Origin: an uncultured Candidatus Saccharibacteria bacterium
GTDB taxonomy: Bacteria > Patescibacteriota > Minisyncoccia > Phycocordibacterales > GCA-2401445
Reading direction: 5' to 3'
Length of the DNA stretch: 64,000 nucleotides
Assembly (NCBI GenBank): GCA_964436015.1
Contig: CAYTAR010000002.1
Coordinates: forward strand, 9,521 to 73,520
Below, one piece after another: positions 3,169-57,690 of the stretch (position 1 is the first letter of the stretch; each line of letters opens with the position of its first letter). The translations under genes were made by a program, and so were the position numbers. Below the pieces are notes generated by a model. It searched no databases, had not been told where the DNA came from, and saw only the letters and a list, made by a program, of their open reading frames with translations.

Positions 3169-4515
3169 ATGTCTGATCTAAAACAACTTTGGGATAATAC
3201 ACTCGGTCAAATAGAACTTGAAGTTTCAAAGGCAAATTTCAATACATGGTTTAAAAATACAGATATTATTAAGTTTGAGGATGGGGTAATTTACGCAAGT
3301 GTACCTAACCAGTTTGTAAAAGACTGGCTTTCAAACAAATATCACAAGTTTATTCTTAGAATTTTACGAACATTGTCTGATCAAGTTCGTTCACTTGAAT
3401 TTTTAGTTGTTCGTGATGAACAAAAGAAAAAAGAACTGCTCAATCAACGATTTGTTATGCACACCAATGAGCTACCCTTAAACGAGCTCTATATTAATAA
3501 AGATGATAATTTGAACCCACGGTATACATTTGAAACATTCGTGGTTGGTCCGTTTAATGAACTCGCATTTGCTGCCGCACAAGCGGTTATAAAAGAGCCC
3601 GGGATAGCGTATAACCCGCTTTTTATTTGTGGAAATACTGGATTAGGTAAAACACACCTTATGCAAGCGGTAGGGAACTATGTAAAAAACAGTGATAAAG
3701 ACAAGAAAGTCTACTATGTTACTTCTGAGCGATTTGCGCTTGATTATCTAAACGCACTTCAAAATAACAAAGCTACCGTATTCAAAGAAAAATATAGAAA
3801 GTATGACATTTTAATAATGGATGATATTCAGTTCCTTTCAAAAAAAGAAAAAACTCAGGAGGAATTATTCCATCTCTTTAATAGCCTCTACGACAACAAT
3901 AAACAAATTATATTTTCATCTGACAAGCACCCGAACTACTTACCAAATATGGAAGAGCGTCTCAAGTCACGCTTTAGTGCGGGAATGATTGTTGATATTC
4001 CCGAGCCTGACCACGAATCTCGCATGGCAATTTTGAGAGAAAAAGTTAAGGTAAGTAACATCTCACTTGAAAACGATATTATTGATTACCTCGCGCAGAG
4101 CGTAGAAGGGAATATTCGTGAACTTGAAGGAGTACTTAACTCTATTGTGTGCCAAACACGCCTAAAAGCTCGTGATCTCACATTAAATGAAATTAAAAAT
4201 CTAATAAAAGATACCGTAAAGCCAAGAAAGATTGTTTCTGTTAAGGATATAATAAAAACCATTAGTGATTTTTATAGTATTGATGAGGAGATTGTGTACA
4301 AAAAAACAAGAAAAAAAGAAGCTGTTCGTCCACGACAGATAATTATGTATATTCTTCGGGAAGATTTTCACGCTTCGTATCCTTCAATTGGACAGAAGAT
4401 AGGAGGGAGGGATCACACAACAGTTATTCACTCATGTGAAAAAATTAAAAATGAAATAAAGCATGATTCAGTTCTTGCGCAAGAAATTCACCAGATTCGA
4501 ACGATGTTGAGGTAA
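3169..4515 (+). CDS. dnaA: chromosomal replication initiator protein DnaA
   Basis: AAA+ Walker A (GNTGLGKTHL), Walker B (DDIQFL) and a C-terminal DnaA-box-binding HTH. Divergent from rpmH. Confidence 0.95.
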   Translation: MSDLKQLWDNTLGQIELEVSKANFNTWFKNTDIIKFEDGVIYASVPNQFVKDWLSNKYHKFILRILRTLSDQVRSLEFLVVRDEQKKKELLNQRFVMHTNELPLNELYINKDDNLNPRYTFETFVVGPFNELAFAAAQAVIKEPGIAYNPLFICGNTGLGKTHLMQAVGNYVKNSDKDKKVYYVTSERFALDYLNALQNNKATVFKEKYRKYDILIMDDIQFLSKKEKTQEELFHLFNSLYDNNKQIIFSSDKHPNYLPNMEERLKSRFSAGMIVDIPEPDHESRMAILREKVKVSNISLENDIIDYLAQSVEGNIRELEGVLNSIVCQTRLKARDLTLNEIKNLIKDTVKPRKIVSVKDIIKTISDFYSIDEEIVYKKTRKKEAVRPRQIIMYILREDFHASYPSIGQKIGGRDHTTVIHSCEKIKNEIKHDSVLAQEIHQIRTMLR

Positions 4516-6114: not shown

Positions 6115-8654
6115 TTCTGCGGAGTGCTTGAAAGGGTAAATGGAAGGGTAACTTCGCTTCTGTTATACACTGAATCGTAACCCACAATTCGTATTGAATT
6201 GCTTTGCTGAATTGAAGGGATGGAACTAGGAATAAATGTGTACGTAAAAGGTGCTCGCTGTACTGAATTTACAAATTCATTATTGATAAAAATATCAATA
6301 CGAGATAAAGGGTAGATATTTGAGTTTGTAACGGTAAAAGAGACAGGGGAATTGTTCTGATATGAAATAGTAGAATCAATACCAGTTACCAGTAGACGTG
6401 GTTGAGTCTCGGGGGTATGAATGGTATCAAATTCAGTGGGGATGGTGCTTGTGCTTGTTTCTGGAATGTTATTCTTTCTCACCCACTCTCGAACTGGGTA
6501 TTCCCACAATACATACTGCGATACTGATGCAGGATTCTCAGGAACTGGTCCTCGTGGATCATTTCTATCTACCCAATGTAAGATTGAATGAATATCAGTT
6601 ACCACACGAACCTCTTTTGTTTCTTCAGGGGTATACTCTGTTGCGAGTTTTTGAGAAATAGTGTCTATGGTGTACGTGGTGCTCCCCCTCCATTCTCCTC
6701 GAATAACTGGCTTTAAATCATTTTTATTCACGATAGGCTTTGGTTGGGGAAAATCTTCTTTTGGGTATGTAGTGAGCACTTCCTGAATAAATGCGTTCCA
6801 CAGTGGCGCAATAATCAACCCAGCAACCTTCTTATCCATTGGTCTATTGTCGTTGTTTCCAGCCCATGCACCAACAGCGATACGTGGAGTGTAGCCAATA
6901 ACCCACGCATCTTTGTAATCATTTGTGGTACCGGTTTTTACTGCTACATCATATTGAGAAAAATGAAGCGGAGAGTTTGATCCGTACGATGGAGCCCGGG
7001 CAACGTTATCAGAAAGAATATCGCTAATGGTGAGTGCAACATCTTCAGGTAAAACTCGATAAGGACGAGATCCTCCATCTTCAAATAGAACACCGCTTTT
7101 ATCTTCAATTTTAATAATGCTTCTATAAGGAACCCTCATTCCTTTGTTTGCAAATACTCCATATGCGCTAGTCATTTCAAGTGGGGTAACTTCTCCACCT
7201 CCAAGCACTAACGTGAGTCCATATTGGTCTACGCCTCCAAGGGTCGAAATTCCCATATCCTTTGCAGTTCGGAGTGAATCCGCAAGTCCTGCCAAATATA
7301 GTGTTTTTATCGCTGGTATGTTGATTGATTGGGCAAGCGCGTCACGTAGTGACATTGGTCCCCTGAACGCATTGTCATAGTTGCCCGGCATATAGCAGTT
7401 GGAATTACTGTATATTTTAGTGCCATCAGGGCGACACTCGGTTGAAAATTCTGTTTCGAGGTCAAACACAACTGTTTCTGGAAGAAACCCTTTTTTAAAT
7501 GCAGTTGCGTACACAAAAGGTTTAAAAGTTGAACCAGGCTGTCGTTTTGCGAGCGCAATGTTATAGTTACCGTCAATTTCTTTATCAAAGTAATCTCGAG
7601 AGCCCACCATTACCAAAATATCTCCAGTAGTTGCATCGATAGCAACAAGGGATGCATTTTCGGCATCAAACTGTTCACTGTTTGAAAGTGCGAATTTTTT
7701 TGCAATTTCTTCAGCTTTAAGTTGTAGATCGTAGTGAAGGGAGGTAATAACTTTTAGTCCGCCCTCTTGTACTGCCTTTTGACCGTACTTTAGTTCAAGT
7801 TGTTCAATGATGTAAAACACAAAGTGAGGTGCTTGTATTCCAATCTCGGATCGTGGGCGAAATTCTACCTCTTCTAAACTTGCGCCGTCGTACTCCTCCT
7901 GCGTTATAAATCCATTTTCAACCATTCGGCGCAACACGAGATTTTTACGATTATTCAAAGCTTCCACATTGTTTCCATATGGTGAGAAATATGTCGGCGC
8001 TTGTGGAATCGCAGCTAAATACGCTGCCTCTGCAAGCGTTACATCGTATGCGCGTTTTCCAAAAAAAGTGAGACTAGCCTGCTCAGCTCCATAAATATTA
8101 CCCCCGTAAGGTATTTCATTAAGGTAAATTGAAAGAATTTCATCTTTAGTAAGAACTTGCTCAAGTTTTAATGCGAGTACCCACTCTTTTATTTTACGTG
8201 AAATTTTCTTTTCTGAAGTGAGAACTGAGTTTTTAATGACTTGTTGGGTTATGGTAGAACCACCTTGAGTGTACCCGTCACGACCGAGGTACGTCAGCAC
8301 GTTTGAGAGTACTGCGCGGATAATTGCCTTGGGTTTAATTCCTTTATGGCTATAAAATTCAGCATCTTCAATTGCAACACTGGCATTTTTTATATTTCTT
8401 GAGATTTCCTCAAAAGGAACCACGGTTCTTCTAATGTCTTGGTGTACATCGTAGAGTAAATGTTCTCCCGTACGATCGTATATCTTGGTTGATTCGGTTA
8501 TTTTGCGCTCATCAAATGTTTGTAGGTCGGGAATAGGAAGTGTTGCAACCCACAGGAGGCCAGCGCCTCCCACCACGAGGCCTGATATGGCGCCAATAAA
8601 GATTAATTTTATTCCTATGTGCTTGATTGCATACCAATGCTTCCTTTTTTTCAT
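6111..8654 (-). CDS. class A penicillin-binding protein (PBP1A-type glycosyltransferase/transpeptidase) with a C-terminal extension
   Basis: N-terminal TM, GT51 motifs (EDAEFYSHKGI, GGSTITQQ), transpeptidase STFKPF (SxxK), plus a roughly 150-aa S/T-rich tail. Confidence 0.9.
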   Translation of the reverse strand: MKKRKHWYAIKHIGIKLIFIGAISGLVVGGAGLLWVATLPIPDLQTFDERKITESTKIYDRTGEHLLYDVHQDIRRTVVPFEEISRNIKNASVAIEDAEFYSHKGIKPKAIIRAVLSNVLTYLGRDGYTQGGSTITQQVIKNSVLTSEKKISRKIKEWVLALKLEQVLTKDEILSIYLNEIPYGGNIYGAEQASLTFFGKRAYDVTLAEAAYLAAIPQAPTYFSPYGNNVEALNNRKNLVLRRMVENGFITQEEYDGASLEEVEFRPRSEIGIQAPHFVFYIIEQLELKYGQKAVQEGGLKVITSLHYDLQLKAEEIAKKFALSNSEQFDAENASLVAIDATTGDILVMVGSRDYFDKEIDGNYNIALAKRQPGSTFKPFVYATAFKKGFLPETVVFDLETEFSTECRPDGTKIYSNSNCYMPGNYDNAFRGPMSLRDALAQSINIPAIKTLYLAGLADSLRTAKDMGISTLGGVDQYGLTLVLGGGEVTPLEMTSAYGVFANKGMRVPYRSIIKIEDKSGVLFEDGGSRPYRVLPEDVALTISDILSDNVARAPSYGSNSPLHFSQYDVAVKTGTTNDYKDAWVIGYTPRIAVGAWAGNNDNRPMDKKVAGLIIAPLWNAFIQEVLTTYPKEDFPQPKPIVNKNDLKPVIRGEWRGSTTYTIDTISQKLATEYTPEETKEVRVVTDIHSILHWVDRNDPRGPVPENPASVSQYVLWEYPVREWVRKNNIPETSTSTIPTEFDTIHTPETQPRLLVTGIDSTISYQNNSPVSFTVTNSNIYPLSRIDIFINNEFVNSVQRAPFTYTFIPSSIPSIQQSNSIRIVGYDSVYNRSEVTLPFTLSSTPQN

Positions 8655-19124: not shown

Positions 19125-19348
19125 CCAGTATTTTTTAAGGAGGCCATAATCAGAGTAGCTTAATGTATAAATGATATAATTGGTTTACCAATTATATCAT
19201 TTATACATTGCATTGTCAATAAAGAAACCAAAGAAATTAACATACCTGATATCAGTAATGAAGATATTTTAGAATGTATAAAATTTTGCATTAGATATAT
19301 TATAACACGAAAAAAGCATAGTAACAAAGCCAGATTTAAATCATACCT

Positions 19349-19445
19349 AGGAATCGCTCCCTACAGGAACAGTACCCCAATTGGATTTTTTCTTCGTAGA
19401 GTACTACTCGAAAAAATACTCAATAGGGCTTCGATTCCTACCCGC
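19349..19445 (-). repeat. 97-nt tRNA-associated element (mini variant) downstream of tRNA-Lys; terminal inverted repeats GTAGGAATC...GATTCCTAC
   Basis: About 88% identical to 24143-24239. One end is the inverted copy of the tRNA T-arm (TAGGAATCGAAgccc); the other is a direct GATTCCTA copy. Confidence 0.7.
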
Positions 19446-19487
19446 AGACACCCCCGTGTCTGCTTGGCCGAACTTTCGTTCGCTTCG

Positions 19488-19560
19488 CTTACTCAAGTCC
19501 GTCCAGTAGGAATCGAACCTACGACCCTCTGCTTAAAAGGCAGGTGCTCTACCGACTGAG
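19488..19560 (-). tRNA. tRNA-Lys (anticodon TTT)
   Basis: Cloverleaf on the minus strand: acceptor CCGTCCA/TGGACGG, D-arm GCTCAGTCGGTAGAGC, anticodon loop CTTTTAA, T-arm GTAGGTTCGATTCCTAC. No encoded CCA. Confidence 0.85.
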
Positions 19561-19562
19561 CT

Positions 19563-20111
19563 ATGGACGGATACCAAAGAAAAGTAACAAAAAAAACGGA
19601 ACTTGTCCATATCCACCCTCCACGGTATAGTGTCCACGTGAAAAAAGAAATCATCGTAATCCTACCTGACATCAGAAGTGTACATAATGTTGGTTCAATA
19701 TTTAGAACTGCGGATGGGGCAGGGGTTTCAAAAATTATTCTTTCAGGATACACTCCCACACCTTTTGATCGTTTTGGGAAAAAGCGAAAAGATTTTGCCA
19801 AGGTTGCTCTCGGTGCGGAAGATTTTGTGCCATGGGAGTATTCTCTTGATGTGGTAGGTTCCATTTCTACCCTTAAAGCAGAGGGTTTTACGATTGTTGC
19901 TATTGAACAGGATTCGCACAGTACGCCGTTTACAACATATACGTACCCTCAAAAAATTGCGTGTATTTTTGGTAATGAGGTAGGAGGAATTCAAAAAGAA
20001 ATTCTTGAACACGCGGATGTGGTGCTTGAGATTCCCCAGTACGGAGAAAAGGAGTCACTCAATGTTTCAGTAACAGCAGGAATTATTCTTTTCAACATTC
20101 AACAAAGATAG
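19563..20111 (+). CDS. SpoU/TrmH family RNA 2'-O-methyltransferase (the first ~25 aa may be an artefact of the upstream Met)
   Basis: SPOUT motifs GNEVGGI and ESLNVSVTAGIILF. Confidence 0.7.
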   Translation: MDGYQRKVTKKTELVHIHPPRYSVHVKKEIIVILPDIRSVHNVGSIFRTADGAGVSKIILSGYTPTPFDRFGKKRKDFAKVALGAEDFVPWEYSLDVVGSISTLKAEGFTIVAIEQDSHSTPFTTYTYPQKIACIFGNEVGGIQKEILEHADVVLEIPQYGEKESLNVSVTAGIILFNIQQR

Positions 20112-20114
20112 GTT

Positions 20115-21074
20115 CTAGTATTTTTTCTCAGCAATGAGTTTTCCTGATTGGTCGCGTATCTCTATGTGCTCATACTTTTGTTTGTAGAGGGGTTGTGTTC
20201 GGTTGAGATACAAATACCAAGTATTTTTAGTAAATCCAGGAAGGTTTTTGTTGATATTTACACACTCAGTGTAGTTAATTTCTTCCTTAACAAACTTTTG
20301 GCACTCCTGTGAGAGGATGGTTGGCACAGAGGTAAACACCGTACATCGAGGAAGTCGGTTGATGTACTCTCTACATGCATCATTAAAATGGTTCGGGGGC
20401 TCTGGTTGTGGAAAGTTTTTCGGATATGGACACTCTTTGGGAAGTGAAGGGGTAAAGTTTTGGTGTTGCTCAAAAAAACCAGTGCACAGGTTTGTGCGGA
20501 ATGACATGGTATTTGGAGATTTTCCTGTATTGATAACAATACTACTTCCTGGGCTTGCTAGCACTTGGTTGGTGGCGTTTATTTGTCCTAAGAAGGGTAG
20601 ATAGACCGCCTCTCCAACTGTAGCAGTAACTTTATTTACCGTGCTTTGTATCGTCCAGCCAGTTACAGGGATTGACGTTGTTGCTTTAGAGCTTACCGAG
20701 AGGATGATGTATTCCGAATTAGGGTCATCACGCGTTGATTTTCTGAGCGTCTTCCAGGTTACCAAGTCAGCGTAGGGGGAGCGGTCAAGGTTGGTTATGT
20801 ATTCCGCAACCTGCTTTTCAACCACTTTTACTTCTTTTGATACACTCGTTACTTCTTTACTGATGGCTTTTGTTTCTTCCGCTTTGATTTGTTCGGGAGT
20901 TTTAACCGGAGCAGTTTTAGGGGTGCGTTGCGGAGGGTTGAAGAGGCGAAAAGGGGTGCTTGATGCGTTGTTTCCACTTCCTCCACTAAAACCATTTACT
21001 ATCGCTCCAATAACCACAATACCGATAATGAGTCCGGTAAGTGGGAAAGCGGGAGGAGCTTTTTTATCTGCCAT
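20115..21074 (-). CDS. hypothetical membrane-anchored protein with a Cys-rich C-terminal domain
   Basis: N-terminal TM (LTGLIIGIVVIGAIV), a coiled segment, and six or more conserved Cys in the C-terminal half. Confidence 0.5.
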   Translation of the reverse strand: MADKKAPPAFPLTGLIIGIVVIGAIVNGFSGGSGNNASSTPFRLFNPPQRTPKTAPVKTPEQIKAEETKAISKEVTSVSKEVKVVEKQVAEYITNLDRSPYADLVTWKTLRKSTRDDPNSEYIILSVSSKATTSIPVTGWTIQSTVNKVTATVGEAVYLPFLGQINATNQVLASPGSSIVINTGKSPNTMSFRTNLCTGFFEQHQNFTPSLPKECPYPKNFPQPEPPNHFNDACREYINRLPRCTVFTSVPTILSQECQKFVKEEINYTECVNINKNLPGFTKNTWYLYLNRTQPLYKQKYEHIEIRDQSGKLIAEKKY

Positions 21075-21092
21075 AGGTATGTATATTCTCTG

Positions 21093-22370
21093 CTAGTTTT
21101 TCGGTACTGTCAAAAGCTTGGAGAGCTCTTCTCGGGATACCTCTGCATCACTCCACGGCTCTTTGGTGCCGTTGCTTCGCATTATGTAGGGGTCAGTTCC
21201 TTTCCCAGTGATAAGCACCACATCATGGTGTCCTGCAAGAGAAAGTGCCCGAGCAATAGCGACTCTACGATCAAGTATTTTCTCTGGTGTGTGTTTAGTA
21301 ACTCCTCGCGCTACATCATCAATAATATTTTGAGGACTGTCATCATACGGGTCTTCATCGGTAACAATAATATGGTCGCAGTAGGTATCAGCTAATGCCC
21401 CCATTTTTTCTCGCCGAGAGGTGTCGCGACCTCCACCCGCTGACCCAAGTACGCAAATTTTTCTTTTTTTAGAAAATGTTTTATATACCGCTTCAAGAGA
21501 TTCCGGTGTGTGTGCGTAGTCAACGTACACCTCAAATGATTGTCCGCATTCAATTTTCTGCAACCGTCCGTCAATCGTAGAGACGCGAGCGACTCCTTCT
21601 GCGATACTCTGTGCTTGAATATTTCGCACACGTGCCCAAGTAACCGCGCCTAGGATATTTTCAAGGTTGAACTCTCCACGAAGTGATGAGTGAATCGGTA
21701 CTCCTTTATACATACATTCAATACCGGAGTCACTGATTAACATATGCTCGGCATCCTTTTTTGAGTAAGAAACTGTTTTATCAATAGCGAGTGCGGTAAA
21801 GTGGTGTGATTCTGGACTGTCTCCATTTACCACGAGTAGTTTATCTTTTTTTCTACTCCGTTTGAGCTCGCGAGCAATAGATAGTTTTGCGGATCGGTAC
21901 TTTTCAAAAGATCCGTGTGATTCAATGTGCTCTGGAGTTAAGTTGGTAAAGATAAGACTATCAAGCGAGAGGTATTTGTGACGAAATTGTTTTGCTCCTT
22001 CTGAGGTCATTTCAAGTACCACCCATGTACACCCTGCGCGTACCGCTTTTCGAATAAAATGTTGTACAAAAAACCTTCCCGGTACGCTCATTTTATAGAG
22101 GTTGGGCGTACTCACGTCTCCTATTTTGAAGCGAATAGTGTTGAGGAGTGCAGTTTTTTCGCCCGACGCTTCAAGGATGGAAGAGACAAGCTCAACGACC
22201 GAGCTTTTGCCTTTGGTTCCCGTAACCGCAACAATACGGATGTGTCGTGCTGGGAAGCGGTATACGCACGCAGAGAGGGTAGCGAGGAGGCAGTGGTACG
22301 CTGGCTGAAAAAACGCAAACACTGGTTTCGGGATTACTTTTTTTATGGTGCGAAAAAAGGATTCAATCAT
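21093..22370 (-). CDS. Mur ligase family protein (UDP-N-acetylmuramoyl-peptide ligase-like; exact step undetermined)
   Basis: P-loop VAVTGTKGKSS about 50 aa from the N-terminus. C-terminal Mur ligase domain: VVLITGKGTDPYIMRSNGTKEPWSDAE. Confidence 0.65.
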   Translation of the reverse strand: MIESFFRTIKKVIPKPVFAFFQPAYHCLLATLSACVYRFPARHIRIVAVTGTKGKSSVVELVSSILEASGEKTALLNTIRFKIGDVSTPNLYKMSVPGRFFVQHFIRKAVRAGCTWVVLEMTSEGAKQFRHKYLSLDSLIFTNLTPEHIESHGSFEKYRSAKLSIARELKRSRKKDKLLVVNGDSPESHHFTALAIDKTVSYSKKDAEHMLISDSGIECMYKGVPIHSSLRGEFNLENILGAVTWARVRNIQAQSIAEGVARVSTIDGRLQKIECGQSFEVYVDYAHTPESLEAVYKTFSKKRKICVLGSAGGGRDTSRREKMGALADTYCDHIIVTDEDPYDDSPQNIIDDVARGVTKHTPEKILDRRVAIARALSLAGHHDVVLITGKGTDPYIMRSNGTKEPWSDAEVSREELSKLLTVPKN

Positions 22371-22933
22371 TTTCCAAGGTGTTTTAATGCACGCGTTACT
22401 CGTTCGCTACTACTTACTCCTTCTTGAGCGGTATTTTTGAGTGCGTCTCTTGCTTCATTTCGGGAAAAGCCGAGTGCGAGGAGTGCTTCCAGAGCGTCAA
22501 TCTCTTCGTTTGAAGATTGTGCGTTGTGTGACATGTGTTCAAATGAATCTTTAAGTTCCAGTACAATTTTCTCCGCATTCTTTTTTCCGATACCTGATAT
22601 TTTAGTGAGATAGCTTGTGTCTCCAGTACTGATTGCGGTGTGAAGTGTCTCTATTCCTGCGATGTTGAGTATTGAGAGCGCCGTTTTTGGTCCGACTCCT
22701 GAAACGGAGATAAGTAGTTCAAAAAAATCTTTTTCTCGTAGCGAAAGAAATCCATAGAGATCAAGCACCGCTTCTCGTACAACCAGGTGGGTCCAGAATG
22801 TGCGTGTTTCTCCGACTGAGACTTGTGAGATTGTCTCACCGGTGGCAAATATACGGTAGCCAACCCCGGAAACCGAGAGGATAATAGTTTTTTCTTCAGT
22901 GTGGGCAATAGTGCCAGTAAGTTGTCCTATCAT
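22367..22933 (-). CDS. ruvA: Holliday junction DNA helicase RuvA (start trimmed to MIGQLTGTI)
   Basis: OB-fold N-terminus GVGYRIFA, HhH motifs SVSGVGPKTALSIL, and a C-terminal RuvB-interacting domain. Confidence 0.85.
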   Translation of the reverse strand: MIGQLTGTIAHTEEKTIILSVSGVGYRIFATGETISQVSVGETRTFWTHLVVREAVLDLYGFLSLREKDFFELLISVSGVGPKTALSILNIAGIETLHTAISTGDTSYLTKISGIGKKNAEKIVLELKDSFEHMSHNAQSSNEEIDALEALLALGFSRNEARDALKNTAQEGVSSSERVTRALKHLGK

Positions 22934-23049
22934 TCCTCTATGATACTCTGTTGTGGCAGGTAACCACAATAGCGGATGTGCGCTATTGTCAGGTATTGCG
23001 CGATTTCACATCTTCTGGTAGAGTGTCAAGACTTAAAAAGAGATATAGT

Positions 23050-23322
23050 ATGCCAATTACATCATCAGCAAAGAAAGCACTCAGGAATTCAGCGCGAAAG
23101 CGTGTATTTAATGCGCGTCGGAGCAATGCAATGAAGTCCGCAGTTAAGCAGTTTGTAAAGCTTGTACAGGATAAGAAGGTTAAAGAGGCAAAAGAGTTAC
23201 TCTCAACGGTCTATAAAGCGATCGATAAAGCAACTAAGGGTAACACTATTAAGAAAAATACCGCTTCTCGCAAAAAATCTCGCTTGTCCGCATTTGTTAA
23301 AAAAGCAGAACTCGCAAAATAA
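23050..23322 (+). CDS. rpsT: 30S ribosomal protein S20 (start at MPITSSAKKALRNS)
   Basis: SAKKALRNSARKRVFNARRSNAMKSAVK is the S20 signature; a terminator follows. Confidence 0.85.
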   Translation: MPITSSAKKALRNSARKRVFNARRSNAMKSAVKQFVKLVQDKKVKEAKELLSTVYKAIDKATKGNTIKKNTASRKKSRLSAFVKKAELAK

Positions 23323-23326
23323 ACAA

Positions 23327-23355
23327 AAGACCGCCATGAGCGGTTTTTTGTTTTT
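23327..23355 (+). terminator. rpsT terminator
   Basis: AAAGACCGCcatgaGCGGTTTTTTGTTTTT. Confidence 0.8.
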
Positions 23356-23431
23356 GTAGAGTCTGTCTTTGTGTCACGTATTGCAACAAAAGGTTTGAAT
23401 TGCTAACCTTAGCTTTAGAGTAAGGCTTGAT

Positions 23432-23689
23432 ATGAAAATACTATTATTTTTGCTCAATCTGCCGATTCGCTTTTGCTATCGGCTTGATCGATGGTTTTGT
23501 TGTTCGTTGCCCAGACCTCTTCGTTTTTGGTGGGCAAAACAGTGGGTTAGAAAGGATGAGTTTCACCCTTCTCTTAATCTTGATGCGGATTATGCGAGTC
23601 GTCTTTCTCAGGAGGAGCGTGATGCATATTTTGAGAATGTGATGAAGCGCAGAGCAATTGCCCACGAGCGCGATATCGCAACAAGTTGA
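23432..23689 (+). CDS. hypothetical small protein
   Basis: 85-aa ORF followed by a hairpin terminator on the same strand. No homology recognised. Confidence 0.35.
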   Translation: MKILLFLLNLPIRFCYRLDRWFCCSLPRPLRFWWAKQWVRKDEFHPSLNLDADYASRLSQEERDAYFENVMKRRAIAHERDIATS

Positions 23690-23778
23690 ATCCAAACCAC
23701 CACGTCTTTGACCTCTGGTGGTTTTATTTACTCGGGAGTGGTACAGTACAAAAGGAAATAAAAACGAAAGGATAATGT

Positions 23779-24015
23779 ATGTATCTTGTGTATAGTACCT
23801 GTACTAACTGCGGGAATACATTCGGTCATTCTGATGAAGGCGAAACGCTAGTTTGTCCCGAATGCCAAAAGGAGATGGATGAGGAAAAGAAGAGAAAATA
23901 TCTTGATGTTTGTGCCATGCTCCCAACAGAAGAGCGGTTACGCAGAATTGAGGATTGGATGTATGAGCACAAAAAAGCACCTCATGACTTCAGTGGTCCG
24001 CCACGTATTGGATAG
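23779..24015 (+). CDS. small zinc-ribbon protein
   Basis: CTNCGN...CPECQKE (CxxC-x16-CxxC); followed by a terminator. Confidence 0.5.
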   Translation: MYLVYSTCTNCGNTFGHSDEGETLVCPECQKEMDEEKKRKYLDVCAMLPTEERLRRIEDWMYEHKKAPHDFSGPPRIG

Positions 24016-24024
24016 TGAGAGGCA

Positions 24025-24052
24025 AAAAGCACCCACAGGGGTGCTTTTTAAT
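24025..24052 (+). terminator. intrinsic terminator
   Basis: AAAAGCACCCacagGGGTGCTTTTTAATTTT. Confidence 0.8.
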
Positions 24053-24142
24053 TTTGGAAAGAGTTTGGGGGAGGAAGGAGGTATTTGGAAAACGTACATT
24101 GTTCTCAGTAGAATCGGTCACGAGTTACTAAGGATTATTTCG

Positions 24143-24239
24143 GTAGGAATCTCTCCTTACAGGAGCAGTATCCCAATTGGATTTTTTGTTCGCAGAATAC
24201 TACTCCAAAAAATACTCAATCGGGCTTCGATTCCTACAC
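24143..24239 (-). repeat. 97-nt tRNA-associated element (mini variant) downstream of tRNA-Arg(GCG)
   Basis: Homologous to 19349-19445. Separated from the tRNA by a long hairpin GAGCACAAAAAGAAG..CTTCTTTTTGTGCTC. Confidence 0.7.
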
Positions 24240-24302
24240 GAAAGCGTCCCCACGCTTTCTCTCGAGCACAAAAAGAAGAACCCTTTCGGGTCCTTCTTTT
24301 TG

Positions 24303-24374
24303 TGCTCTCGGTAGGAATCGAACCTACATTGCAAGCTCCGCAAGCTTGCGTCCTATCCATTGAACGACGAGAGC
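24303..24374 (-). tRNA. tRNA-Arg (anticodon reads GCG)
   Basis: Acceptor GCTCTCG/CGAGAGC, D-arm GTTCAATGGATAGGAC, anticodon stem-loop CAAGC-TTGCGGA-GCTTG, T-arm GTAGGTTCGATTCCTAC. Confidence 0.75.
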
Positions 24375-24415
24375 ATATCAATTGGCTTTAGCAAAAACAG
24401 ACTACCACAAAGGCG

Positions 24416-26990: not shown

Positions 26991-28175
26991 TTATTGCATA
27001 CCTTTTAAAGCACAATCAAGACCAAGAATAATATCTTTAGGATCTTCAAATCCGACTGACAGGCGAAAAAAACCATCAGTTATTCCCAACGATTCCCGAA
27101 TATCTTTTGGAATACTCCTATGACTCATGAGCGGGGGATAGGCAATTATTGTTTCCGGACTCGCCAAGCTCTCACCGTATACAATGGGGCTGTTTTTTCG
27201 CAATAAGTCAACGAATTTTTTAAGTACACGGTTGTTTTTATTTTTAAGGATGAATGACACAACACCACCATACCCTCCTTTGCTTTGCCTTTGTGCCACA
27301 GCGTGATTTGGATGAAAAGAGAGTCCGGGATAGAGTACTTTTTCTATGTGATTATTTCTTTCTAAAAATGTTGCCACAGTGAGCGCTGTTTCACTTACTC
27401 GCTTCCAGCGTAATTCAAGCGTTTTTACTTCTTGGAGGACACGGTAGCATTCATCAGGTGAGAGGATTGCACCCAGTGTGCGGTGTAAAAAAACGAGTTG
27501 TGCATGAAGCTTTTTATTCCGAGTAATAATCGCTCCTCCAATAATATCGTTGTGACCGGCAATATATTTACTTAAGCTATGAATTACAGTTTCTGCTCCG
27601 AATTCAAACGATTGTAGTGCGCACGGTGGAGAAAATGTTGCATCAACCACGAATGGAATTCCCGTTTCTTTAGATACTTTTGCAACAAGCGATAGGTCAA
27701 TGACATGCAGTGATGGGTTTGTTGGGGTTTCCACAAAAAAATATTTTGTAGAAGGCGTAATGCTGTTATGGATAGATTCTTCAGTGCTGAAATCAACACA
27801 ATCAAAGGTTATCCTGAAGCGCGAAAAGTACTGATCGAGTAAGCGAAATGTTCCGCCATATACTTCTTGGCAACAGAGTACGTGGTCACCTGGTGCGAGT
27901 GTAGAAAAAAAGGCTGTTTCGGCTGCGAGTCCTGATGAGTAGACGGTTGCATTACCTCCTCCTTCCAATTGAACCAGTTTTTCTTCAAGTTTTTGTCGTG
28001 TTGGATTTTTCCCACGAGAATACTGGAATTCACTTTCAATACCAAACTCCTTTTGCGCAAATGTTTTTGTTCGCACCAGTATAGGCGCAACCGCACCAGT
28101 TTCTTTGTCAGGCTTCTCTCCGCTGTGGACTAGTTTTGTTGAAAAGGACCACTCTTTTTTGTATCTATTCTTCAT
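26991..28175 (-). CDS. Cys/Met-metabolism PLP-dependent enzyme (MetB/MetC/MetY family)
   Basis: PLP-lysine motif SLSKYIAGHNDIIGGA. It is preceded by a SAM-I riboswitch, which suggests a methionine-biosynthesis role. Confidence 0.8.
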   Translation of the reverse strand: MKNRYKKEWSFSTKLVHSGEKPDKETGAVAPILVRTKTFAQKEFGIESEFQYSRGKNPTRQKLEEKLVQLEGGGNATVYSSGLAAETAFFSTLAPGDHVLCCQEVYGGTFRLLDQYFSRFRITFDCVDFSTEESIHNSITPSTKYFFVETPTNPSLHVIDLSLVAKVSKETGIPFVVDATFSPPCALQSFEFGAETVIHSLSKYIAGHNDIIGGAIITRNKKLHAQLVFLHRTLGAILSPDECYRVLQEVKTLELRWKRVSETALTVATFLERNNHIEKVLYPGLSFHPNHAVAQRQSKGGYGGVVSFILKNKNNRVLKKFVDLLRKNSPIVYGESLASPETIIAYPPLMSHRSIPKDIRESLGITDGFFRLSVGFEDPKDIILGLDCALKGMQ

Positions 28176-28211: not shown

Positions 28212-28352
28212 AGCTCTTCCGTAAAGAAGAGATTTTAAATCATATAGATATATTATCTTTCCCTTACGGGCTAGATTGAGCACTTACTTCTTACGAAGAG
28301 TTGCTGGCGGTTCATAGAGCTAGTTCTCTCCCCGCACTCTGGATAACTATTT
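28212..28352 (-). promoter_or_regulatory. SAM-I (S-box) riboswitch with terminator expression platform in the 5' leader of the Cys/Met PLP enzyme
   Basis: Minus strand reads TTATCCAGAGTGCGGGGAGAGAACTAGCTCTATGAACCGCCAGCAAC...GTGCTCAATCTAGC...AAAGATAA. Compare the S-box consensus TTATCAAGAGAGGTGGAGGGACTGGCCCGATGAAACCCGGCAACC...GGTGCCAATTCC...AAAGATGAG. Then CTCTTCtttacgGAAGAG + U-run. Confidence 0.7.
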
Positions 28353-56673: not shown

Positions 56674-57690
56674 ATGTCTATTTGGTATACTAGAGGTATG
56701 AGATTATTTGTTCTAGGATTCATATGTTTTGTGAGTGCATTTTTTATTACGCCAGAAATTGCATTTGCAAAGTACATACAAGTATCACCTATTGTAATAA
56801 ATAAAGATTTGCAAGCTCGTGATATTATCCGTGAACAAGTGGTACTGAAGAACACCTCTCCTGCAAAGTTAAATGTGTATACATTTGTTAACAATGTTAC
56901 TTCTGGAACGGAGGGGGGTATTGAGGCATTTCTTGATTATCAACAATCAGAAAAACAAAAGTCGTTGGCAAACTGGATTGAGATTTCACGCGGAGTGATT
57001 GAATTGATGCCAGGAGAAGAAAAAGAAATTGAATTTATTATTAAAGTGCACCATGAGGCTACTCCAGGCGATTATCATGCATTGATTTCTTTCGGAACTG
57101 GAACCAATAGAGATGAGGCTGAACAGCGCCTTACACGAGAGTCATCGGTGATGGTTGTTGGGTCAGTAGTGAAAAATACAAGAGAGCTCCTTCAGGTGAA
57201 AAAATTTACCGCGGGGAATTTATTTTTTTCAGGAACTGATGCGGAGTTCACATACACCCTTCAGAATAATGGTGATGAGGTAATTATCCCTGATGGAGAA
57301 ATCTTGCTTTATGATAGGCGTGGAATTGAGATTGGTGCAATGCGCGTTAACGGACAGGGAGAGAGTATCTTGCCAGGGGAAGAAAAGGAGTTTGTTTCAA
57401 CATGGAGCGGTGAATATAGTCTCGGTCGGCACAAGGCGTACTTGAGTGCAGTGTATGGTGCACAGAAGAAAAACTTGACTGATACCACCTACTTTTTTAT
57501 GTTGCCATGGAAGCAGTTATTACTGTTGTTTACTGTACTTATGTTCTTTACGGTGTATGTTATGCATGTGATTCACGATAAATTTTTTCAAAAGAGAAAA
57601 AAACAGGTTCAATTCAACCGTGTATCTCGTCCAGTAACGCCTCCGGTCCCAGGGGTTGGTGTGATTAATCTCAAACAATATGAGGATTAA
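56674..57690 (+). CDS. cell-surface protein with signal peptide and C-terminal TM anchor (DUF916/DUF3324-like architecture), paralog 1
   Basis: Signal MRLFVLGFICFVSAFFITPEIAFA, a beta-rich ectodomain, and C-terminal TM LLLLFTVLMFFTVYVMHVI + KR tail. Confidence 0.55.
   Translation: MSIWYTRGMRLFVLGFICFVSAFFITPEIAFAKYIQVSPIVINKDLQARDIIREQVVLKNTSPAKLNVYTFVNNVTSGTEGGIEAFLDYQQSEKQKSLANWIEISRGVIELMPGEEKEIEFIIKVHHEATPGDYHALISFGTGTNRDEAEQRLTRESSVMVVGSVVKNTRELLQVKKFTAGNLFFSGTDAEFTYTLQNNGDEVIIPDGEILLYDRRGIEIGAMRVNGQGESILPGEEKEFVSTWSGEYSLGRHKAYLSAVYGAQKKNLTDTTYFFMLPWKQLLLLFTVLMFFTVYVMHVIHDKFFQKRKKQVQFNRVSRPVTPPVPGVGVINLKQYED

Follow-up and report, generated by a model that had tools for sequence, protein, structure and literature searches.

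tRNA and tmRNA genes, and the T-loop specifically, are reportedly classical sites of integration, and to our knowledge no chemistry of transposition produces both an inverted and a direct copy of its target. In the current study a window of 64,000 nucleotides from an uncultured Candidatus Saccharibacteria bacterium was analysed, in which all seven real tRNA genes are followed by cassettes. These are members of a large and apparently undescribed family of small cassettes of structured RNA, which trail tRNA and tmRNA genes across the ultra-small Patescibacteria (CPR).

Two compact elements lie directly downstream of tRNA-Lys (copy A, 19344-19442, minus strand) and of tRNA-Arg(gcg) (copy B, 24140-24238, minus strand). 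ARAGORN placed both host tRNAs on the minus strand, and the elements are therefore 3' of the tRNAs, with minus as the relevant strand. An earlier sequence-only reading had reported two similar copies of about 97 nt at these loci, and both are present (19348-19441 and 24144-24237 are 90.4% identical over 94 nt by blastn; identity is 87% by MAFFT with flanks included). The 9-bp inverted repeat that it had placed at their ends is exact in copy B (GTAGGAATC...GATTCCTAC, 24143-24237), but the plus-strand left end of copy A is CTAGGAATC, so that its inverted repeat is TAGGAATCG/CGATTCCTA, short of the full GTAGGAATC. The proposed derivation of the ends from the T-arm of the adjoining tRNA held. The motif TAGGAATC occurs seven times in the window (1.8 expected), and six of these occurrences are accounted for by the two compact elements and their two host tRNAs.

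T-arm-like ends, in copies that both adjoin a tRNA having that T-arm, might indicate non-canonical tRNA genes (split T-arm, intron-containing or permuted), or the repeats might be due to chance. Either is hardly conceivable. The compact elements have no anticodon arm or D-arm, their 5' arm is antisense, and neither ARAGORN nor the Rfam tRNA model called them, even at E<=10; the end pattern of copy B appeared in none of 100 shuffles, and at least 44 homologues show covariation. Both candidates were rejected on these grounds. A tRNA call at these segments was what the sequence-only reading had named as its refutation, a test that it thus passed. Its alternative of a T-arm split by an insert of about 80 nt was not supported: the 5' arm is the reverse complement of the T-loop and T-stem 3' strand (AATCGAA and not TTCGATT), and therefore copies the 3' quarter of the tRNA in inverse orientation instead of supplying the 5' half of a T-arm. 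No family in Rfam 15 was matched by the compact elements.

At the first locus, tRNA-Lys(ttt) (19497-19570, minus; T-arm GTAGGTTCGATTCCTAC) was identified by ARAGORN and by the Rfam tRNA model (73 bits). Sequence inspection and a terminator scan found no T-run terminator between it and copy A. A junction hairpin (19444-19463, minus; GCAGACAC-GGGG-GTGTCTGC; sequence and RNAfold), with equivalents in other type C copies, stands immediately 5' of the antisense arm. This 5' arm (X', 19430-19441, minus) is GTAGGAATCGAA, the reverse complement of tRNA positions 54-65 (TTCGATTCCTAC), according to the sequence and a map of antisense 12-mers. The core (19357-19429, minus) falls within a match to covariance model R2 at 19344-19442 (85.7 bits, E = 7e-22; alignment A3), and is made up of helix P2c (GCCCUAUUGAG / CCAAUUGGGG), a variable hairpin, a GUACUG linker and the P3c hairpin UUCC-UGUA-GGGA. 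Its P2c has U.U at a pair that is G.U or G-C in 43 of 44 relatives. The 3' arm (X, 19348-19356, minus; CGATTCCTA) is a sense copy of tRNA positions 56-64, and the cognate-arm duplex has an energy of -12.1 kcal/mol.

At the second locus, tRNA-Arg(gcg) (24302-24374, minus; ARAGORN, Rfam 62.7 bits) has a T-arm identical to that of tRNA-Lys. The long hairpin reported to overlap its 3' end is real: a terminator-like palindrome (24264-24307, minus; about 20 bp per arm; sequence and RNAfold), in whose outer arms the tRNA-Arg 3' end pairs with an imperfect antisense-acceptor segment downstream, and which has a homologue in L041. The junction hairpin (24240-24259, minus; GAAAGCGU-GGGG-ACGCUUUC; sequence and RNAfold) splits the 5' arm into an antisense-acceptor part and an antisense-T part, and other modules also have a hairpin in this position. 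The arm itself (X', 24226-24237, minus) is again GTAGGAATCGAA, antisense to tRNA positions 54-65. The core (24152-24225, minus; R2 match 24140-24238, 93.1 bits, E = 6e-24; alignment A3) comprises a P2c with a G.U pair, a variable hairpin and a P3c of CUCC-UGUAA-GGAG. It is followed by the 3' arm (X, 24140-24151, minus; GATTCCTACCGA), a sense copy of tRNA positions 57-68, and the arm duplex has an energy of -13.8 kcal/mol. Fused behind copy B is the relic of a type A cassette (24100-24139, minus; ...AAUAAUCCUUAGUAACUCGUGACC, then a degenerate second sense arm, GATTCTACTGAGAACA), which matches the type A 3' motif exactly at 24116-24131 and aligns by blastn with a cassette at 35197-35223.

Judged from sequence, the compact elements are members of a conserved RNA class, here named type C, of which 44 examples were collected from CPR genomes and metagenomes. 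A motif scan with a core-context filter gave 37 further copies on metagenome contigs, and for 27 of these a tRNA lies upstream at a distance of 35-113 nt; where the flank is visible on the contig, this spacing behind a tRNA holds for most type C copies, whatever the isotype. Model R2 also found 28 type C matches in 100 loci that had been picked for type A. Four elements make up the type C core: a helix of 9 bp in which an A is bulged, a variable hairpin, the GUACUG linker, and a hairpin of 4-5 bp whose loop is UGUAA. The internal palindromes and A6/T6 pair seen previously are real, and belong to this fold: CCAATTGG is the P2c helix, and the variable hairpin has the A6/T6 pair as its base.

In alignment A3 of type C, 97.5% of cells are paired, and covariation is 0.405, versus 0.115 in shuffled alignments (0/500) and at most 0.117 when partners were slid; all five P3c pairs covary. 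The type A alignment (A2) is 94.8% paired, with covariation of 0.395 versus 0.119 shuffled (0/500) and one invariant G.U pair. One P2c pair of type C is G.U in 24 of the 44 copies, and the G.U pairs in type C helices fix the strand as that of the tRNA. These data show that the cores are constrained as RNA on the tRNA strand. The suggestion that the compact elements are a minimal or ancestral form was not borne out, since the type A model (R1) gave them no score (E>10), and they have a core of their own with at least 44 copies elsewhere. On direct comparison, made for types A and C only, type C is by its sequence a parallel core class, not a reduced type A.

The other cassettes of the window include at least three core types (A, B and C) behind its tRNA genes, plus one that is unclassified, and the compact elements do belong with these tRNA-flanking repeats, as had been proposed. 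The count of two loci was incomplete: R2 added a third, diverged type C core (36628-36723, minus; 55.2 bits, E = 2e-13), which lies inside a type A cassette of the tRNA-Val array, within its distal hairpin, and a fragment (35440-35480, plus; model positions 20-58; 17.2 bits, E = 0.007) at the end of the tRNA-Arg(tct) array. tRNA-Ser(tga) (30658-30745) is followed by two type A cassettes on the minus strand (30358-30599 overall: 30480-30599 and 30358-30468; R1 44.4 and 47.0 bits). Behind tRNA-Arg(tct) (34781-34853), the plus-strand array (34902-35441) holds an unclassified cassette (34902-35031) and two of type A (35110-35227 and 35310-35441; R1 90.1 and 89.8 bits), and the tRNA 3' end CGATTCTTACCGGGGGCACAC occurs as three repeats. 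The minus-strand array (36576-36950; R1) of tRNA-Val(tac) (37005-37078) consists of a cassette at 36809-36950 and then the composite type A cassette with the nested type C core (36576-36795). tRNA-Leu(gag) (38484-38566) has two type A cassettes on the plus strand (38621-38959 overall: 38621-38750 and 38827-38959; R1 81.9 and 56.9 bits). Behind tRNA-His (42070-42144), a type B plus type A pair (42213-42317 and 42369-42499) is repeated at 42586-42690 and 42742-42872 (plus strand, 42213-42872 overall) as a perfect tandem duplication of 373 nt; R1 scored the type A cassettes at 93 and 92.3 bits and matched type B weakly (20.6 bits).

Beyond the window, the type A 3' motif was found at no fewer than 116 genome loci, overwhelmingly CPR. 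Among the loci listed, a same-strand tRNA, of about 20 isotypes, typically lies 114-400 nt upstream, and the sequence past the motif repeats the 3' end of that tRNA. tmRNA genes are also trailed by cassettes, and a solo copy was found behind ftsZ. Arrays, truncated relics and chimeras all occur; the truncated and chimeric copies resemble decaying selfish DNA. No cassettes were found on viral contigs.

Arm sequences vary with the host gene. From T54 through the T-stem 3' strand, the host tRNA is reverse-complemented in the 5' arm, which often extends through the acceptor 3' strand and trailer with the junction hairpin interrupting; the 3' arm is a direct copy starting at about C56/R57. The antisense arm agrees with the tRNA at 300 of 333 positions. 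The sense arm differs from the tRNA at 64 positions, at 60 of which the antisense arm matches the tRNA and at 2 the sense arm; the latter is frequently degenerate, or merely 4-5 nt long ('ACA' subtype). Median duplex energies are -12.05 kcal/mol for cognate and -6.9 kcal/mol for non-cognate arms. Mismatches between antisense arm and tRNA show no wobble bias (28 G.U versus 29 A.C), and the excess of G.U in the closing helix P1 is weak (21 versus 12). As the arms follow the host gene without wobble bias, they appear to be DNA-templated. RNA-level selection on pairing between antisense arm and tRNA is thus unsupported, and pure DNA-level templating accounts for the absent bias equally well. Empty tRNA-Gly sites have no antisense arm, which therefore comes in with the cassette. 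At tRNA-Arg(gcg), the window and L041 share the terminator, junction hairpin and antisense arm, with a type C core in the window and a type B core in L041. The data show that cores are swapped between loci as cassettes, and that arms behave like copies of the host gene made at the DNA level.

Since each unit is bounded by direct repeats of the tRNA 3' end, sometimes reaching into the trailer, at genes favoured by integrating elements, the repeats could be attL/attR scars, produced by integrases that target the tRNA T-loop, around the remnant of a decayed phage or island. This explanation is close to refuted. The units are 100-200 nt long with a conserved RNA core instead of decayed genes, the intervals between the repeats contain neither integrase nor cargo, the viral contigs are devoid of cassettes, the antisense arm is left unexplained, and no single attP could serve the roughly 20 isotypes behind which the same cores stand.

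A serious rival, although on balance an unlikely one, is that the cassettes are selfish, non-autonomous mobile elements that colonise tRNA and tmRNA 3' flanks and have no host function. On insertion, the 3' quarter of the target tRNA would be copied twice to make the arms, once inverted and once direct, and the fold would be conserved as a transposition intermediate (RNA or single-stranded DNA) or because an enzyme encoded at another site recognises it. That at least three types of core share their boundaries is more simply accounted for by a common mechanism of insertion or recombination than by a common function. The common T-loop boundaries of cores A, B, C and the unclassified one, the different cores between identical flanks at an orthologous locus, the type C core nested within type A, and the arrays, 373-nt duplication, relics, chimeras and ftsZ copy all favour mobility. 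So do the arrival of the antisense arm with the cassette, the strand symmetry of arm mismatches, which points to copying at the DNA level, and the distribution of distal-hairpin variants: a given variant recurs on different tRNAs from one genome to another, and a single tRNA, Gly-tcc, has different variants depending on the genome. However, no transposase, recombinase or reverse transcriptase was found near the cassettes checked, the 10 ORFs scanned in the flanks of both compact copies and of the tRNA-Arg(tct) array are either housekeeping genes or without a Pfam match, and in 185 tRNA flanks no ORF lies between any antisense/sense arm pair. Also against selfish elements are the cassette-free viral contigs and the misfit of an inverted plus direct target copy with known transposition. 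Moreover, orthologous cassettes persist in relatives (tRNA-Val and tRNA-Leu versus L113, tRNA-Lys versus L129) in which neighbouring protein-coding genes are only about 70% identical in DNA, and cores show nucleotide-level conservation between Saccharibacteria and Paceibacterota, whose genomes are under strong reduction.

The best explanation, held tentatively, is that of modular RNA cassettes which act as a co-transcribed trailer with a three-strand toggle and spread by arm copying and core swapping. As a best guess at function, tRNA and cassette would be transcribed together, either through read-through or because the cassette is a spacer within an operon. The antisense arm could then pair either with the tRNA 3' quarter, unfolding the T-arm and acceptor stem, or with the downstream sense arm to form P1, which would leave the tRNA free for folding and excision. 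At the tip of P1, the core probably serves to bind a protein or ligand and thereby bias the toggle; once excised, the trailer RNA would be compact and stable. New arms probably arise when the host gene is copied through fold-back or template switching, and cores are probably exchanged via recombination at the universally conserved T-loop sequence.

For the tRNA with its first cassette, the minimum-energy fold pairs the tRNA 3' quarter with downstream sequence at 81 of 105 loci, with a median gain of about 10 kcal/mol in nearest-neighbour energies, which leave out tRNA tertiary structure and modifications; this would fit the antisense arm as the partner. For tRNA-Arg(gcg), the fold of lowest energy has the tRNA T-arm plus P1, and the centroid has the tRNA paired with the antisense arm. 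Co-transcription is supported by spacers of just 14-20 nt at some loci (L007, L011), by cassettes between tRNAs in L099 and by the terminator-free interval between tRNA-Lys and copy A. No cassette promoter was evident. At many loci a strong bidirectional terminator separates tRNA and cassette, which would limit co-transcription.

The closing helix may also be viewed as a tRNA-minihelix mimic, read by RNase Z, RNase P and the CCA-adding enzyme, that defines the ends of the trailer RNA. This is improbable, even though many copies have arms that recreate the acceptor and T-stem together with the discriminator and a few bases of the trailer, and the junction hairpin occupies precisely the boundary between acceptor and T-stem from which the D and anticodon arms of a tRNA emerge. 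The 5' arm is strictly antisense to the 3' strand and 'corrects' the tRNA's own G.U pair (e.g. in L005); it pairs the discriminator and trailer too, so the helix has no free NCCA-like end. The core takes the place of the T-loop, which is the part that such enzymes read, the acceptor portion is absent or degenerate in many copies (copy A and the entire 'ACA' subtype included), and CCA is encoded inconsistently in the sense arm. Both tmRNA and tRNA genes, which are matured by the tRNA machinery, are trailed, and a trailer with ends defined by tRNA-processing enzymes would be comparable to the t-elements of plant mitochondria and to MALAT1 mascRNA.

The two near-identical repeats that the sequence-only reading had placed behind tRNA-Lys and tRNA-Arg were recovered by blastn, with 90.4% identity over 94 nt (19348-19441 versus 24144-24237); a separate alignment (MAFFT) that included the flanks gave 87%. 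ARAGORN located tRNA-Lys(ttt) at 19497-19570 and tRNA-Arg(gcg) at 24302-24374, both on the minus strand, and both compact elements (copy A, 19344-19442, and copy B, 24140-24238, minus strand) therefore lie directly downstream of tRNA 3' ends. Copy B ends exactly in GTAGGAATC...GATTCCTAC, a pattern that occurred in none of 100 shuffles, and copy A carries CTAGGAATC at one end. The motif TAGGAATC was found seven times in the window compared with 1.8 expected, and six of these seven lie within the compact elements and their tRNAs. The existence of the repeats at these two loci was thus confirmed; the strand, one base of the copy A repeat and the copy number required small corrections. Just 3' of copy A (19163-19219, minus strand), a 22-bp perfect AT-rich palindrome (19163-19210) is overlapped by a sigma-70-type promoter at 19219-19191, which agrees with the consensus at 12/12 positions (TTGACA-17-TATAAT with extended TG).

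On the tRNA strand, each compact element begins with GTAGGAATCGAA, the reverse complement of tRNA positions 54-65 (TTCGATTCCTAC), and its 3' end repeats the tRNA in the sense orientation from position 56/57 on, reading CGATTCCTA in copy A and GATTCCTACCGA in copy B. The idea that a T-arm had been split by an insert had to be abandoned: what stands at the left end is the right half of the T-arm in inverted orientation and not the left half, and in neither copy does the 5' arm correspond to the sense 5' strand of the T-stem plus the start of the T-loop. The view that these segments are repeats and not non-canonical tRNA genes was borne out. ARAGORN called only the neighbouring tRNAs, leaving both copies uncalled, and the Rfam tRNA model gave no match to 19344-19442 or 24140-24238 at gathering score or E<=10. 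Each copy has the other as its nearest relative, also in the variable hairpin, and their arms are alike only because tRNA-Lys and tRNA-Arg(gcg) have a common T-arm. This closeness is expected, since the common T-arm makes the full 97 nt homologous and prone to gene conversion.

ARAGORN detected seven credible tRNA genes in the window, six of which were confirmed by the Rfam gathering scan; tRNA-Leu, absent from the gathering-score set, reached 46.3 bits in the Rfam E-value scan. According to repeat finding and direct reading, all seven are followed on the same strand by one to four modules, forming a conserved structured RNA of 100-700 nt behind every tRNA gene of the window. The order within a module is tRNA, often a terminator-like palindrome, an antisense arm (X'), a conserved core and a sense arm (X), and in each module X' and X are both specific to the module's own tRNA. 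The arms of the palindrome frequently extend back into the tRNA 3' end.

The commonest core in the window, type A, is a three-way junction with the consensus GAA-AGNCGSAG-[hairpin]-CGAGN'CGGGGUCGMGAGUACUUAG-[hairpin]-CUUAGUAACUYGUGACC, the last element (CUUAGUAACUYGUGACC) being its 3' end. A covariance model built from 45 type A copies of other genomes (R1) detected nine strong copies in the window, at tRNA-Ser, tRNA-Arg(tct), tRNA-Val, tRNA-Leu and tRNA-His. Type B cores, which are related to type A, gave only weak matches to this model. A degenerate type A origin was rejected for the compact copies: with filters off, R1 returned nothing at E<=10 on either, and the type A 3' motif was found near them only in a relic at 24100-24139 behind copy B.

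Several individual modules of the window had features of their own. The first module behind tRNA-Arg(tct) (34902-35031, plus strand) has perfect arms (antisense GTAAGAATCGAAC, sense GTTCGATTCTTACCGGGGGCACAC) and a core matching neither R1 nor the type C model R2 described below, and may represent a fourth core type. Behind tRNA-His (42137-42809, plus strand), a 373-nt unit made up of a type B and a type A cassette is tandemly duplicated with 100% identity, which looks like a very recent unequal exchange between repeated tRNA 3' ends. At many loci a junction hairpin with the conserved loop (G)CAAACUGCUUUG(C) interrupts X' exactly at the boundary between acceptor and T-stem, for example at 42183-42212 and 35281-35310 in the window and in L028, L033 and L078 (L numbers denote loci fetched from other genomes).

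Elsewhere in the window, a SAM riboswitch (S-box, 64 bits) was detected at 28250-28349 (minus strand), upstream of a 394-aa ORF (26991-28175, minus strand). The 'tRNA-Pyl(cta)' called by ARAGORN at 57968-58043 (minus strand) lies within a 561-aa ORF (57680-59365, plus strand), was not confirmed by Rfam, has no cassette and is probably a false positive. Two pairs of repeats (60090-60389 and 61480-61779, 98% identical; 59676-59819 and 61054-61197, 76%) fall within two neighbouring ORFs, each about 380 aa long (59565-60704 and 60943-62094), which points to a gene that was recently duplicated in tandem and has since been partly homogenised. A 71-nt repeat (52307/53357) falls within a 2073-aa ORF.

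The compact copies belong to a separate family, here termed type C. Relatives were detected by blastn against the fetched loci behind tRNA-Arg, -Pro, -Cys, -Lys, -Ser, -Val and -His, in MAGs of Paceibacterota and Saccharibacteria. A metagenome scan for TCCAATYGGGRTACTG, filtered on the upstream core motif, yielded 37 more copies, 27 of which lie, on the contig available, 35-113 nt behind a tRNA of their own strand. Both window copies have the type C core, GAAG-CCCGAUUGAG ... CCAAUYGGGRUACUG and a UGUAA-looped hairpin of 4-5 bp, and both are located no more than about 120 nt behind a same-strand tRNA whose T-loop and T-stem 3' strand are copied, antisense and sense, in their arms. The 27 metagenome copies and the copies in the genome loci share this arrangement.

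In an alignment of 44 type C sequences (A3), 97.5% of the cells were paired in a fold consisting of helix P2c, a variable hairpin and helix P3c. P2c is formed by CCCGAUUG/CAAUYGGG with a bulged A, and P3c is a 4-5-bp stem with a UGUAA loop that covaries at all pairs (CUCC/GGAG, AAUC/GAUU, AAAC/GUUU, GUCG/CGAC). Covariation was 0.405 versus 0.115 in shuffled alignments (reached in 0/500), and slid partners gave at most 0.117. At one position of P2c, 24 copies have a G.U pair and 19 have G-C (43/44), copy A alone having U.U; this G.U pair identifies the tRNA strand as the functional one. The covariance model (R2) scored 93.1 bits for copy B and 85.7 bits for copy A, with every helix present. It also detected a third, diverged copy (36628-36723, minus strand), which lies within a type A cassette of tRNA-Val, in its distal hairpin, and a type C fragment (35440-35480, plus strand). 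As R2 found 28 matches in 100 genome loci that had been chosen for type A, the two types coexist widely. A recurrent 1-2-nt insertion relative to the host T-loop was seen in type C sense arms on different tRNAs (GAATCC to GAAATTCC in L050, L122, L147, L166, L182 and L208; GATTCC to GATATCC in L129 and L176), which would produce a conserved bulge in the closing helix formed by X' and X (P1).

The type A 3' motif was present at no fewer than 116 genome loci, almost all of them from Patescibacteria (CPR) among the matches listed, including Yonath-, Nomura-, Campbell-, Vogel-, Zambryskii- and Lloydbacteria, 'Minisyncoccia' and many Saccharibacteria. In the few non-CPR matches among those listed, the nearest tRNA was distant or there was none nearby. 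About 75 loci had an upstream tRNA on the same strand, typically at 114-400 nt and mostly at 125-165 nt, covering about 20 isotypes among the matches listed. The bases after GUGACC are the 3' part of the T-loop, the T-stem and the acceptor 3' strand of that tRNA, and in L040, L053, L075, L103 and L111 the copy is free of mismatches through the discriminator. In the 'ACA' subtype the bases after GUGACC start with ACA, mostly behind Arg, Lys, Glu and Ala tRNAs; the terminator-like hairpin of this subtype bears the CUGC loop that is also seen in the junction hairpin. In the type A alignment (A2), 94.8% of the cells were paired, with a covariation of 0.395 versus 0.119 (0/500) and one invariant G.U pair.

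Genes for tmRNA (ssrA) are also trailed by cassettes (L013, L037, L056 and L074; in L013 on the minus strand, at about 6200-6600 of the oriented locus), in which X' copies the T-arm and acceptor of the tmRNA as GAGTGGAGACGG-[hairpin]-GGGGAATTGAA. Relics (truncated), arrays of at least four cassettes and chimeras were likewise present in the fetched loci. A solo type A cassette was seen in L032 (plus strand, about 4290-4430) directly behind a gene with an FtsZ-looking C-terminus and no tRNA; its closing helix, GGTACC/GGTACC, is unrelated to any tRNA. When all loci were pooled, 99 of 185 tRNA/tmRNA genes had an antisense and/or a sense 12-mer with at most one mismatch, typically at +50 to +90 and +140 to +210, respectively, where we estimate that chance would give about 0.007 for each gene and orientation. 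Across taxa, the cores are shared from Saccharibacteria through to Paceibacterota.

The arms and the cores differed in their pattern of substitution. Of 333 positions compared in 37 relatives, 300 agreed with the host tRNA in X' and 269 in X. X departs from the tRNA at 64 positions, and there X' sided with the tRNA 60 times and with X twice; therefore P1 shows no compensatory drift away from the tRNA. RNA-level selection on X':tRNA pairing was examined by way of wobble bias in 149 antisense arms and found no support, the mismatches comprising 28 G.U, 29 A.C and 104 others, i.e. no bias. The lack of such a bias is a prediction of copying at the DNA level, not of RNA-level selection. In the cores G.U pairs are abundant and A.C practically does not occur; P1 has a weak G.U excess (21 vs 12). 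The copying can pass the end of the tRNA, X running into the tRNA trailer (L003, L103) and X' into the anti-trailer.

Orthologous tRNA-Gly sites in L008, L065 and L093 are empty and have a plain terminator without X', and L059 and L063 have the full cassette; the antisense arm therefore comes together with the cassette. Such gain as a unit, together with arms that follow the DNA of the host gene, could be read as the work of selfish elements with target-templated ends, a serious rival explanation that we nevertheless rate as less likely than not. No ORF of an autonomous version was found between the arms in 185 tRNA flanks. Mobile-element genes were also not seen among the ten ORFs beside the compact copies and the tRNA-Arg(tct) array, six of which are housekeeping genes and four of which had no Pfam match. 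Among the housekeeping genes beside the compact copies are ruvA, a holA-like gene and the genes for a SpoU methylase and a Mur ligase; a Na/Ca exchanger gene comes after the tRNA-Arg(tct) array. An encoded CCA in the sense arm was considered as a sign of the direction of integration and discarded, as its pattern varies among loci.

The boundaries of the cassettes are in the T-loop, the stretch common to all tRNAs (left ...TCGAA, right GAWTCC...), which we infer to be a common microhomology for the exchange of cores. The window and L041 have the same orthologous tRNA-Arg(gcg), palindrome, anti-acceptor segment, junction hairpin and X', with a type C core in the window and a type B core in L041. 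The nested type C copy at 36628-36723, the fused type A relic at 24100-24139 and a chimera in L063 point the same way, namely that the cores act as cassettes. The L063 chimera (6380-6800, plus strand) is an array behind tRNA-Pro, in which a tRNA-Leu 3' end comes after one type C core and the next module has X' for tRNA-Leu and X for tRNA-Pro; its inter-module spacer is 93% identical to the tRNA-Leu spacer of the window (38750-38838). Distal-hairpin variants of type A are common to different tRNAs of different genomes, and tRNA-Gly(tcc) has differing variants in L003, L009, L034 and L042. Cassettes can be old residents too. The tRNA-Val gene is identical in the window and L113, where the array layout is similar, the first cassette matches and the variable hairpins have diverged, and the cassette behind tRNA-Lys is of type C in L129 as it is in the window.

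Taken together, the data establish a conserved RNA fold on the tRNA strand, host-templated arms and a tight coupling to the 3' ends of tRNA and tmRNA genes. The cassettes are presumably co-transcribed with the tRNA. Neither the sequence nor a terminator scan revealed a terminator between tRNA-Lys and copy A, spacers at some loci are 14-20 nt long, and in some cases a cassette separates two tRNAs of a single cluster. In silico, the minimum-energy fold of tRNA-Lys plus copy A had X' paired with the T-loop and 3' strand of the tRNA. For tRNA-Arg plus copy B, the predicted minimum-energy fold kept the T-arm and formed P1 and the centroid had X' paired with the tRNA, so that tRNA-Arg(gcg) looks bistable in these predictions. 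Among 105 loci, 81 had the tRNA-paired fold as their predicted energy minimum, the median gain being about 10 kcal/mol, and the arm duplex amounted to about -12 kcal/mol for cognate and about -7 kcal/mol for non-cognate pairs.

As a working model we propose a three-strand toggle. The tRNA would fold first, during transcription, after which X would capture X' to form P1, and the core at the tip of P1 would stabilise or gate this capture. Enzymes of tRNA processing would then free the tRNA and, as a second product, a compact trailer RNA. Without P1, X' could unfold the tRNA. The package as a whole, i.e. RNA fold, host-templated arms and tRNA coupling together with co-transcription and the three-strand toggle, is put forward as a tentative account that we would somewhat sooner doubt than assert.

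A more far-reaching proposal, possible and still doubtful, is that CPR possess an unrecognised host-templated RNA cassette system at most of their tRNA/tmRNA genes, which would be either a cis switch or a new mobile element. If a cis switch, a candidate ligand- or protein-binding core would gate the maturation of each tRNA genome-wide through the toggle; such control would resemble that of a riboswitch, but would be directed backwards, at a stable RNA encoded upstream. If mobile, the cassettes would be a new RNA or DNA element making its own target-matched ends, and we know of no transposition chemistry that makes target-matched inverted ends.

The compact elements had no match in Rfam 15 (4227 families), which was searched over the whole window at gathering score and over 38480-39000 and 24080-24380 at E<=10; these scans returned only tRNAs, the one SAM riboswitch and spurious long-hairpin (miRNA) matches. 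When the conserved loops were compared by eye with the consensus of the hammerhead, twister, HDV, group II domain V, K-turn and sarcin-ricin motifs, none of these fitted, and Rfam agreed. No description of the cassettes was found in Rfam 15 or in the full-text literature searched, exact motif strings included, and as far as these sources go they appear to be new. A transcriptome preprint on TM7x states that this organism has no validated small RNAs.

The genomes of CPR are among the smallest and most streamlined known, and the cassettes are a cost in conserved RNA for such a tiny genome. They account for most of the 'unexplained repeats' beside tRNA genes of CPR MAGs. Should they have a host function, they would add to tRNA biology a lineage-wide layer, be it maturation control, quality control or an abundant RNP, which is present in no model bacterium and could help to explain how episymbionts translate with a reduced enzyme set. 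Should they be selfish, they would be a mobile element producing target-matched inverted ends. Either way, two well-defined and strongly covarying RNA families are missing from Rfam, and the cassettes can be tested in cultured, genetically tractable Saccharibacteria.

Several known systems resemble the cassettes in part. Like the tRNA 3' external transcribed spacer or trailer RNAs (3'ETS; E. coli 3'ETS-leuZ is one), a cassette is a small RNA directly behind a tRNA gene, presumably derived from the tRNA precursor and freed by tRNA processing. Known 3'ETS RNAs are, however, short, lineage-specific sponges of sRNAs, in which there is no conserved multi-helix core and the host tRNA is copied in neither orientation, and they are not repeated behind most tRNAs of a genome.

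The attL/attR repeats of integrated elements share with the cassettes the direct repeat of the tRNA 3' end from the T-loop, the tRNA and tmRNA sites and the possibility of tandem arrays. This repeat was indeed found in the cassettes, X comprising tRNA positions 56/57 onward and sometimes running into the trailer. In contrast to att-bounded elements, the cassette unit is 100-200 nt long, with an RNA-constrained core and an extra, inverted copy of the tRNA end; one core occurs at about 20 tRNA isotypes, and the cassettes have no integrase or cargo and are absent from viral contigs. An origin from phages or islands was rejected after both motifs had been scanned in viral contigs, where 39/39 matches were due to chance, without core or tRNA.

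MITEs and REP/REPIN/BIME elements are likewise short, ORF-less, intergenic, high-copy sequences with inverted-repeat ends, hairpins, arrays and a frequent position behind genes. Their ends are constant in all copies and are the binding site of the transposase, whereas the cassettes have locus-specific ends and a conserved interior with RNA-type covariation and G.U pairs. Inverted repeats common to all copies were not found, the arms varying with the host tRNA, and the flanks are an inverted duplication, not a direct target-site duplication. A 6-bp TTCGAA target-site duplication was also considered, but fails on non-palindromic T-loops such as TTCGATT (sides ATCGAA...GATTCC).

Riboswitches and attenuators have a conserved multi-helix domain closed by a P1 helix, one strand of which has a mutually exclusive alternative partner, giving a bistable fold. 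The cassettes have a conserved, covarying domain that would be closed by P1, and an alternative pairing is predicted for them in silico, with tRNA-Arg(gcg) looking bistable; the wobble counts give no sign of RNA-level selection on the pairing with the tRNA. In the cassettes, however, the alternative partner would be the upstream tRNA and not the terminator or ribosome-binding site of a downstream gene, P1 is copied from the host gene, and there are several unrelated 'aptamer' types.

The cassettes partly resemble the omega RNAs of TnpB/IscB (IS200/IS605 right end), in that a scaffold is followed by a variable 3' stretch of 9-20 nt identical to a neighbouring target; the X sequence in the tRNA is preceded by the fixed, universal TTC of the T-loop, and ORF-less copies of omega RNAs are known as well. 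Unlike omega RNAs, the cassette has an anti-guide (X'), its target is an intact host tRNA gene of the same genome, and the 'ACA' subtype is almost without a guide-like segment. No tnpB, tnpA or iscB was detected with Pfam among the ORFs flanking the two compact copies, and no Rfam omega-RNA/HEARO match was obtained.

Finally, tRNA-like signals (plant mitochondrial t-elements, mascRNA, the tRNA-like domain of tmRNA, YrlA) also have ends joined in an acceptor plus T-stem helix and a hairpin at the acceptor/T junction. The cassettes differ in having neither a T-loop nor a free NCCA-like 3' tail, their 5' strand is a perfect antisense and not a copy of the tRNA 5' strand, and the mimicry is specific to the host tRNA. 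Each of these systems, i.e. 3'ETS, att repeats, MITE/REPIN, riboswitch, omega RNA and tRNA-like signals, thus departs from the cassettes in at least one tested defining feature, and to our knowledge there is no precedent for interchangeable, RNA-constrained cores between arms that are specific to the locus and templated on the host, one inverted and one direct.
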